From sequence record PV037056.1: DNA of 64,000 nt. The stretch is one strand, 5' to 3'. This document shows, piece by piece, positions 55,563-56,612 of this stretch; the first letter of the stretch is position 1, and each line of letters starts with the position of its first letter. This stretch comes from Staphylococcus phage Fi4S2. The notes under the pieces were generated by a model. That model saw only the letters and a program-made list of their open reading frames with translations. It did not search any database and was not told where the DNA came from. The position numbers were made by a program, and so were the translations under genes.

Positions 55563-55591
55563 AGAGACCTTTAAGGTCTCTTTTTTTTTTT
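55563..55591 (+). terminator. rho-independent terminator (AGAGACC-tttaa-GGTCTCT + T11)
   Basis: Perfect 7-bp stem with an 11-T run. Confidence 0.7.
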
Positions 55592-55593
55592 GC

Positions 55594-55636
55594 TTGCAAT
55601 TTATTTAAAGATGTATTATACTAATAAAAAAGGAGG
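55594..55636 (+). promoter_or_regulatory. promoter TTGCAA-17-TATACT plus AGGAGG SD for the endonuclease gene
   Basis: Read directly. Confidence 0.55.
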
Positions 55637-55645
55637 TACAAAGAT

Positions 55646-56581
55646 ATGACACAAACAAATCAATATACAAGAGATAAAGTAGCAAATAAAAATTTGTGGT
55701 ACAGATTTTGTAAGGAGCAAAACTTAACACCTTTATGTGATTATGATAAATCATCCCAAGTGTTCACTTTTACATTTAAAGAAGGTAAATTTAAAGGTCT
55801 TGAAGGTAAAACATACTGGTCAAGTATAGTCAGAGGTTCTACAATGAAAGGTACCAGTCTGACACAAGATAGTAAAACGCTTTTTATGAGAAGAATAGCT
55901 AAAAGACTAGGAATAGAATTTCTAGACTCTTATGTAGATAACAGAAAGCACAAACACAAATATATAGTTATATCAGGTAAATATGCAGGGTCTACAGGGT
56001 CAATGTTGTTTTGTAATATGGAGAATGCCAAAAGGGTAGATTTACGTTCTTTAGATGAGAAAGGTAAAAAATATTACTTTGACAAAGTAGCCAATAGCAG
56101 AGGGTACACAGTCTTAGAATACCCTGAGAAATACTATGCTAGAAATTTTTGTACGTTAAAGTCTCCTAAGGGAAATGTATGGAAGGTTAGTTGGAATTCT
56201 TTTGAACAGGATGAACTTCTTAATTGCCCCGCTGATAATATGAAAAGCTTTGGAGAGCGTACAGTAGCTCAAGTTTTAGAAGAGCTAAGTATACCATTTA
56301 CTACAGAGTATGCAGTAAAAACCCAAAGTCATAAGAAACAACGTATTGATTTCTATATAGAGTATGAAAACAACAGTTATGCTATAGAGTACAATGGTAG
56401 ACAGCATTATGAGGAGATAAAAGGTAAATGGGGTACTAACTTAGAGTTACAAATTAAAAGAGACTACTATAAGAGAGAATATTGTCGAACTAATAACATA
56501 AGCTTACTTAATATACCTTATAGCATAGTAGATAAAGACATAATAACAAAGCTAGTCAGGTACCATCTATGTAAGGACTAA
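55646..56581 (+). CDS. free-standing REase-fold (DUF559/Vsr-like) endonuclease-domain protein, copy B (311 aa)
   Basis: C-terminal IPFTTEY...RIDFYIEYENNSYAIEYNGRQHYEE...KRDYYKREYCRTNNISLLNIPYS matches the DUF559 pattern and copy A (10944..11477). Own promoter and flanking terminators. Confidence 0.6.
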   Translation: MTQTNQYTRDKVANKNLWYRFCKEQNLTPLCDYDKSSQVFTFTFKEGKFKGLEGKTYWSSIVRGSTMKGTSLTQDSKTLFMRRIAKRLGIEFLDSYVDNRKHKHKYIVISGKYAGSTGSMLFCNMENAKRVDLRSLDEKGKKYYFDKVANSRGYTVLEYPEKYYARNFCTLKSPKGNVWKVSWNSFEQDELLNCPADNMKSFGERTVAQVLEELSIPFTTEYAVKTQSHKKQRIDFYIEYENNSYAIEYNGRQHYEEIKGKWGTNLELQIKRDYYKREYCRTNNISLLNIPYSIVDKDIITKLVRYHLCKD

Positions 56582-56612
56582 GAGACCTAAATATAAGGTC
56601 TCTTTTTTTTTT
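56582..56612 (+). terminator. rho-independent terminator (GAGACC-taaatataa-GGTCTC + T10)
   Basis: Same stem as the 55563 and 12303 terminators. Confidence 0.65.

Follow-up and report, generated by a model that had tools for sequence, protein, structure and literature searches.

Probable free-standing Vsr-like (EDxHD) homing endonuclease genes in Staphylococcus phage Fi4S2, one of them beside a likely contig junction

The Vsr-like EDxHD family of homing endonucleases (Taylor et al. 2011, PMC3239194) includes enzymes encoded in introns, in inteins and by free-standing genes, together with the Hef enzymes of phages. The motif residues of its prototype, I-Bth0305I, are E170, D196, N208, H213 and D222 (PMC3239194). 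Intron-less homing has been reviewed as a mechanism (PMC3984707), and 'collaborative' or trans homing is described for F-CphI with psbA and for MobE with I-TevIII (PMC3984707, PMC2790892, PMC6083498). Here we describe two open reading frames, ORF A and ORF B, in a stretch of 64,000 nucleotides (nt) of Staphylococcus phage Fi4S2 (PV037056.1), the whole of which is referred to as the window. We consider it probable that both are free-standing homing endonuclease genes of the Vsr-like EDxHD type, and that the junction between a broken nrdE gene and a palindrome beside ORF B is a join between contigs. An initial annotation of the window had proposed a poorly described nuclease family. The two proteins are instead additions to the already described EDxHD family with I-Bth0305I as its prototype, and their homologues are already annotated as nucleases.

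The products of ORF B, 311 amino acids (aa), and ORF A (177 aa) were confirmed at the positions first annotated (Table 1), as was their common C-terminal core, which BLASTP aligns at 33% identity over 89 residues (E = 8e-11). To call one a second copy of the other is an overstatement, as the two are best described as distant paralogues with only a nuclease domain of about 100 aa in common. Both match the same four PHROG families (E = 7e-47 to 1e-12), three of which are labelled 'intron encoded nuclease', 'HNH endonuclease' and 'homing endonuclease', the fourth being of unknown function; for the 'intron encoded nuclease' and 'homing endonuclease' families the E-values are 7e-47 to 4e-18. The 'HNH endonuclease' label (PHROG 559) is a carried-over annotation; the HNH catalytic motif was not found by Pfam in either protein, and the modelled domain is alpha/beta, of the PD-(D/E)xK / Vsr type. 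The family is very large. A word-indexed search found 6 homologous proteins, and the exhaustive search that was used for the family gave 7679 cluster representatives at E ≤ 0.001. In an 81-member alignment that includes ORF A, residues D235, E248, G251, H254 and D273 are invariant and E204 is conserved in at least 90% of members, and both proteins carry the putative EDxHD catalytic residues.

An AlphaFold (AF2) model of ORF B, built on the family alignment with a predicted local distance difference test (pLDDT) score of 94.6, consists of three helix-strand-strand-strand-helix repeats (residues 11–63, 74–127 and 138–188) and an alpha/beta domain (202–308). Foldseek searches with the model returned mainly PD-(D/E)xK-type nucleases, Vsr among them, and the structure nearest to the nuclease domain was not Vsr but a homing enzyme, I-Bth0305I (PDB 3R3P), with a sequence similarity of only 23% in the structural alignment. 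The same structure was the top PDB match of the family profile, at an E-value that is not significant alone (0.14); the aligned pattern was GE...DFY...IE.NG, with the GE, the D-F-Y position and the IE.NG in register and the histidine and last aspartate equated by pattern and spacing only. The nuclease domain of ORF A and ORF B is thus predicted to have the Vsr endonuclease fold. The DUF559/Vsr-like fold suggested at the outset therefore stands as far as structure and conserved residues go, but not as a profile match: Pfam detected neither DUF559 (PF04480) nor Vsr (PF03852) in the two proteins, its sole match being DUF2726 in ORF B (E = 0.14). Searches of NCBIfam with both proteins gave nothing significant, and a PDB sequence search with ORF B alone gave chance matches only, with no nuclease among them.

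The N-terminal 200 aa of ORF B are plausibly a DNA-recognition module, as the initial annotation had supposed. The three repeats in this region are tandem, each of about 55 aa, and share a mutual identity of only 17–18%. Relatives match zinc-finger-like families in the equivalent place, with CapR, DUF723 and DUF4379 (treble-clef zinc finger) modules N-terminal to the nuclease domain. Some relatives carry NUMOD-like (C-terminal) or helix-turn-helix (HTH) domains, with which homing endonucleases typically bind DNA; Pfam detected neither type in ORF A or ORF B. Where I-Bth0305I has an N-terminal NUMOD/HTH region, ORF B has three CapR/DUF723-like repeats and ORF A almost no extra domain; the NUMOD/HTH region characterises the prototype and not the family at large. 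A further difference is that I-Bth0305I lies in a recA group I intron, whereas ORF A and ORF B are free-standing; the activity of the two phage proteins is putative. It is highly improbable that they are mismatch-repair or housekeeping endonucleases of the true Vsr/DUF559 type, which would nick T:G mismatches or similar lesions and take no part in homing. The Pfam and structural results above argue against this, as do the large, sequence-variable modules (putatively DNA-binding) attached to the domain, the variable presence of the genes and their self-contained cassettes; moreover, no adjacent cytosine methyltransferase was noticed among the neighbouring ORFs in a search that was not exhaustive. 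A role in defence had been raised as well, and for this PADLOC returned no significant match to a defence-system model, giving only a partial match of ORF B to PDC-M24B (E = 0.0043, 14.7 bits) and none for ORF A.

Megablast of the window placed the source among the Twort-like staphylococcal phages (Herelleviridae, Twortvirinae), with vB_SsapH-Golestan-100 (LC647030.1) as the closest public record and no public record spanning the whole ORF B region. Comparison with Golestan-100 puts ORF B after the stop codon of tmpA, the tail-tube gene, and before the tmpA terminator; the order in the window is the tmpA C-terminus, a terminator (T1), a promoter-like site, a Shine–Dalgarno (SD) sequence, ORF B and a second terminator (T2). 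In Golestan-100, ORF B is missing and the flanks are intact: the tail-tube gene, with one intron after about codon 109, ends in ...ASSK-TAA and is followed by a single terminator (nt 23911–23940, GAGACC-TAAATATAA-GGTCTC) that is identical to T2. By this comparison T2 is the ancestral tail-tube terminator, and T1 is present only in the nuclease-carrying genome. The bracketing of ORF B by two terminators with GAGACC/GGTCTC stems, reported earlier, was verified. Both are terminator-like hairpins with long T runs, they have in common an identical 19-nt stretch, TAAGGTCTCTTTTTTTTTT, and such sites number 4 in 2 kb against 0.7 expected from shuffled sequence. Each gene had also been credited with its own promoter and a strong SD, and both signals were found for each, but the promoter-like site of ORF B (9/12) is by itself unremarkable, being not above shuffle expectation. 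A comparable terminator-promoter-SD layout precedes the homologues in phiSA039, HN01, UHP46 and Logan contigs. Some homologue records describe the gene as intron-encoded; for ORF B this was rejected, as both the tmpA stop codon and a terminator precede its start.

The last 10 codons of tmpA differ from those of Golestan-100 at 8/30 nt, all synonymous, while from nt 56577, where alignment to Golestan-100 at 99% identity resumes, the identity is 91–100% per 100 nt, mostly ≥97%, across the 2 kb examined. This step in divergence at ORF B is the pattern expected from gene conversion by a different donor. Homologues with 41–45% identity to ORF B lie directly 3' of the tail-tube gene in Twort (ORF018), phiSA039 and UHP46, and overall a homologue was found 3' of tmpA in Twort, phiSA039, UHP46, HN01, BE06, VL10, Fi200W and PG-2021_16; a nuclease gene is absent from this site in Sb-1, Romulus, JDF86 and Golestan-100. 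A conserved syntenic position in relatives had been named in advance as evidence against mobility. For ORF B the position is indeed shared, but presence is sporadic and the signature of a mobile element stays. The public labels of these proteins include 'VSR endonuclease' (UHP46), 'Ioh' (Fi200W) and 'intron encoded nuclease'. Twort ORF018, Ioh and the UHP46 protein share both locus and nuclease domain with ORF B (36–45% identity over aligned stretches), and the searched literature gave no biochemical characterisation of homologues of this type. The nuclease genes at the tmpA locus vary in accessory domains: the Twort and BE06 proteins have about 430 aa, a 435-aa representative (P0009) has C-terminal NUMOD-like domains, Ioh has 467 aa, and the VL10 and PG-2021_16 proteins match ORF B in the nuclease domain only.

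ORF A was confirmed to be antisense to both neighbouring genes. On one side it is bordered by the conserved terminator of the 594-aa gene upstream, on the other by the conserved promoter of the next gene. Like ORF B it is missing from Golestan-100, in which nt 10942–11525 are replaced, between intact flanks, by an unrelated spacer of about 80 bp. Its nearest homologue (64% aa identity) belongs to phage vB_Sau_P68 and is likewise antisense to its neighbours, yet none of the proteins that flank ORF A in the window occurs within 3 kb of it, which indicates that the site occupied by the family varies between phages. In its 3' half, the 594-aa gene beside ORF A (nt 9744–10941, compared with LC647030.1 81702–83032) shows only 69–76% identity, unlike most other aligned segments of the window, which are 90–97% identical to Golestan-100; this half may be a conversion tract tied to ORF A, or simply part of a fast-evolving gene.

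Both genes are free-standing, being intergenic, equipped with their own promoter-like site and SD, and variably present among relatives. They resemble the Hef enzymes of T4-related phages, as described in PMC3239194, which are likewise free-standing, intergenic, variably present in lytic phages and of the same nuclease superfamily; the Hef enzymes differ in belonging to another group of phages, the T4-like coliphages, and in having other neighbour genes. The reading as free-standing homing endonucleases, put forward in the initial annotation, fits the absence of both genes from Golestan-100 with intact flanks, the divergence step at ORF B and the unrelated flanks of the P68 homologue.

In the same annotation, ORF B was placed beside a synteny break made up of a truncated nrdE and a palindrome. 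The latter is an inverted repeat (nt 55186–55351 and 55352–55517) with zero spacer and 91% complementarity, and is the only long repeat in the window. Its arms are the 3' ends of an nrdE intron and a tail-tube intron that share 91% identity over 166 nt (Table 1). Rfam confirms intron 1 of Twort orf142 as Intron_gpI (L007, nt 1929–2215), and both arms are homologous to the 3' part of that intron (E about 1e-15 to 2e-19). The nrdE intron is inserted directly after the N-L-C codons of the active-site motif NLC/TEI. At this site nrdE of Golestan-100 is intron-less and continues with the next codon (L005, nt 17080–17160), and the nrdE intron of Golestan-105-M contains an endonuclease, its 3' part being the match to the left arm. 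Since just the 3' third of each intron is present, Rfam detected no Intron_gpI in nt 53500–57500 of the window and produced nothing there but spurious miRNA-hairpin hits on the palindrome; it also missed the introns in Golestan-100, phiSA039, UHP46 and Golestan-105-M.

Counted from the centre (55351/55352), the arms are identical for exactly 77 nt (nt 55275–55428), after which comes a mismatch at position 78 and then block divergence, and these junction-proximal 77 nt are the same in the tmpA and nrdE introns. For 150-nt reads, 77 is the largest default k of the SPAdes assembler, and k bases are common to the contigs that emerge from a repeat node. Two contigs that share a terminal 77-mer and are joined in opposite orientation would therefore produce the structure of this palindrome. 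In addition, all of the Logan contigs that carry a 93%-identical orthologue of ORF B (8/8, from different runs) begin at the equivalent of nt 55419, inside the repeat. The palindrome thus most likely represents two intron 3' ends, each with its own exon, joined head to head at a common 77-mer, and the synteny break next to ORF B, like the palindrome once suggested as a cleavage target, is probably a contig junction. In that case nrdE would not be truncated, its exon 1 being merely non-contiguous in the assembly. The window would comprise at least two contigs joined with no Ns in between, and the sequences to the left of nt 55352 (replication and early genes) and to the right (tail genes) would not have to be neighbours in the phage. 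A natural intron hairpin, a hairpin telomere and a recombination product were each tried as explanations of the palindrome and ruled out by the exact 77-nt identity, the proper exon past each arm and the zero spacer.

The palindrome is nevertheless contained in the sequence as given, and its arms are different intron copies, so that it is no trivial fold-back of a read; both points would suit a real inversion or fold-back involving two related introns and bordered by ORF B. We regard such a rearrangement as improbable. Identity over exactly 77 nt followed by divergence is what contigs of a de Bruijn graph sharing a terminal k-mer would show, intron copies on the same strand cannot yield a zero-spacer palindrome by homologous recombination, and independent assemblies break at the same repeat. 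A real rearrangement would also leave both nrdE and tmpA without their 5' exons here, although the tmpA product, at least, is an essential structural protein, and the tail-sheath gene, tmpA and the nuclease gene are contiguous in related genomes.

If ORF B is a homing endonuclease, then in a mixed infection its N-terminal repeats would bind a site in the gene-less genomes, probably in or beside the 3' end of tmpA, and its Mg2+-dependent Vsr-like domain would cut there. Recombinational repair from the carrier would copy the cassette and adjacent tmpA exon/intron sequence into the cut genome, the carrier itself being shielded by differences in the target sequence or by a nearby intron. Among 12 Twortvirinae, about nine group I intron positions were found in the last 33 or so codons of the 142-codon tail-tube gene (positions ~109, 113, 115, 118, 122, 125, 130, 134 and 136, from tblastn boundaries accurate to ~2 codons), with up to three or four introns per gene; Rfam detects only three of these tail-tube introns, all of Twort. 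TmpA matched some 340 Staphylococcus records. The exons of tmpA and the nuclease genes were mapped in 14 related genomes or assemblies, eight genomes having been added to the initial set and the window and the Logan contigs being counted. At least one tmpA intron within about codons 113–137, at most a few hundred nt from the nuclease gene, was present in 10/10 carriers (the window, Logan contigs, phiSA039, HN01, UHP46, BE06, PG-2021_16, Fi200W, VL10 and Twort). Among the non-carriers, tmpA of Sb-1 is uninterrupted, while Golestan-100, Romulus and probably JDF86 have introns. The association between nuclease gene and tmpA intron is suggestive, in a small and phylogenetically related sample.

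ORF B resembles F-CphI beside the psbA intron of S-PM2 and MobE beside the I-TevIII intron of T4 in being a free-standing nuclease next to a gene with ORF-less group I introns. F-CphI and MobE are Endo VII-like and HNH nucleases, unlike ORF B, for which targeting of an intron site is hypothetical. We tentatively raise the possibility, by analogy, that the nuclease family 3' of tmpA cuts intron-less or nuclease-less tail-tube 3' ends and so drives the collaborative homing of ORF-less introns. An arms race of this kind could account for the roughly nine intron positions in codons 109–137, the interchangeable DNA-binding modules and the near-identical segments of the tmpA and nrdE introns. This intron hot-spot hypothesis is speculative, and is the most interesting thread of the analysis.

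Several observations weigh against the interpretation of ORF A and ORF B as homing endonucleases beside an assembly junction. The searched literature gives no biochemical study of this subfamily, whether of activity, cleavage site or homing event, and its profile links to characterised members (3R3P and DUF2726) are weak. The N-terminal NUMOD/HTH region of I-Bth0305I is missing from ORF B, whose repeats have also lost the zinc-binding cysteines found in relatives, as judged from the 81-member consensus. The association with tmpA introns is not statistically significant (10/10 carriers against 3/4 non-carriers), and the assembly artefact was deduced from sequence alone. ORF B homologues occupy the same site in several genera, and relative to its Logan orthologue ORF B is as diverged as the downstream flank (88.4% and 88.6% nt identity, respectively), from which it follows that the gene has been inherited vertically with its surroundings for some time and kept intact. 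Between these orthologues the synonymous divergence (dS) is 0.64 and the nonsynonymous divergence (dN) 0.042, a dN/dS of 0.066 with similar values in the repeat region and the nuclease domain, and ORF B is under strong purifying selection, which would also fit a domesticated function.

An accessory nuclease serving the phage, by cutting the DNA of co-infecting phages or of the host or by acting in recombination or repair, would agree with this low dN/dS, with the occupied locus in several genera and with a divergence equal to that of the flanks. It has a parallel in a phage intron endonuclease that reportedly mediates competition between co-infecting viruses (PMC11620839). We think domestication unlikely, as the gene is sporadically absent from viable close relatives (Sb-1, Romulus and Golestan-100), a divergence step marks the insertion, and the N- and C-terminal modules differ at the same locus, which is typical of selfish turnover; it also overlaps with homing and does not exclude it. 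Free-standing homing endonuclease genes thus remain our preferred interpretation of ORF A and ORF B.

The features of the two loci are listed in Table 1. Across the window, segments show 69–98% identity to Golestan-100, mostly >90%, in a differing arrangement (local comparison with the whole record). Window nt 40922–55180 corresponds to LC647030.1 80201–67112, reversed, and the record from 80202 onward corresponds to the window from 6785 onward, while window nt 27094–40929 maps to 131572–117728. The minus-strand block of the window at nt 12517–55183, when reversed, resembles the gene order of phage K. Together with the arrangement relative to the window, this suggests that LC647030.1 is possibly itself stitched from contigs. 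Two further polymorphisms were seen. In the first, the DNA polymerase region carries 1.09 kb of sequence that Golestan-100 lacks (nt 47966–49055), and this insertion holds a 217-aa ORF (nt 48158–48811, minus strand) matching PHROG 'HNH endonuclease' families (E = 6.5e-67). This is probably an intron-borne HNH homing endonuclease, and such enzymes have reportedly been found in polymerase-region genes of other Twort-like phages. The second is a replacement (nt 12524–13667, against LC647030.1 84092–85272), where Golestan-100 has an annotated 330-aa 'endonuclease' (84284–85276) and the window has two unrelated small ORFs of 144 and 134 aa that match PHROGs of unknown function.

Table 1. Coordinates in the window of ORF A, ORF B and the sequences around the nrdE/tmpA junction.
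Feature	Position (nt)	Strand	Basis or remarks
ORF A, predicted minimal free-standing Vsr-like endonuclease, 177 aa from ATG after AGGAGG	10944–11477	-	Basic N-terminus and nuclease core, with the same E/D/E.G..H/D residues
ORF A expression signals	11484–11524	-	TTGAAA-16-TATAAT with upstream TG (11524–11497), 11/12; AGGAGG just 5' of ATG
nrdE exon 2, C-terminal 322 codons	54215–55183	-	Comparison with Golestan-100 nrdE
Left palindrome arm, 3' part of nrdE group I intron	55184–55351 (repeat 55186–55351)	-	89% identity to nrdE intron of Golestan-105-M
Right palindrome arm, 3' part of tail-tube group I intron	55352–55517	+	Homologous to Twort orf142 intron 1 (BLASTn E = 1e-15)
Last exon of tail-tube gene (tmpA/orf142 homologue), ...DDLYASDKASSK and stop	55518–55559	+	Matches C-termini of Golestan-100 tmpA (LYASDKASSK*) and Sb-1 TmpA; 3' splice site approximate
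Terminator T1, GAGAGACC-TTTAA-GGTCTCTC and T run	55560–55591 (hairpin 55560–55584)	+	Directly 3' of tail-tube stop codon
ORF B promoter-like site, TTGCAA-17-TATACT	55594–55622	+	9/12 consensus match only
ORF B SD, AGGAGG	55631–55636	+	9 nt 5' of ATG
ORF B, predicted free-standing Vsr-like (EDxHD-type) endonuclease, 311 aa	55646–56581	+	Three repeats (11–188) and nuclease domain (~196–311)
Terminator T2, AGAGACC-TAAATATAA-GGTCTCT and T run	56580–56612 (hairpin 56580–56604)	+	Stem abutted by ORF B stop codon

For ORFs of this kind, which usually appear in annotations as 'hypothetical protein' or wrongly as 'HNH endonuclease', the name Vsr-like (EDxHD) homing endonuclease can be used. For genome assembly, a perfect palindrome with arms equal to the k-mer length of the assembler (77 nt) marks a head-to-head contig join, and should be filtered out before it is read biologically. 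Twort-like staphylococcal phages are candidates for phage therapy, and free-standing homing endonucleases affect marker exclusion and recombination between the co-infecting phages of a cocktail. A free-standing nuclease gene next to a tail-tube gene with clustered intron sites makes a tractable system for the study of collaborative homing, which, if it does take place here, would be the first case for an EDxHD enzyme and would involve a new type of DNA-recognition repeat.

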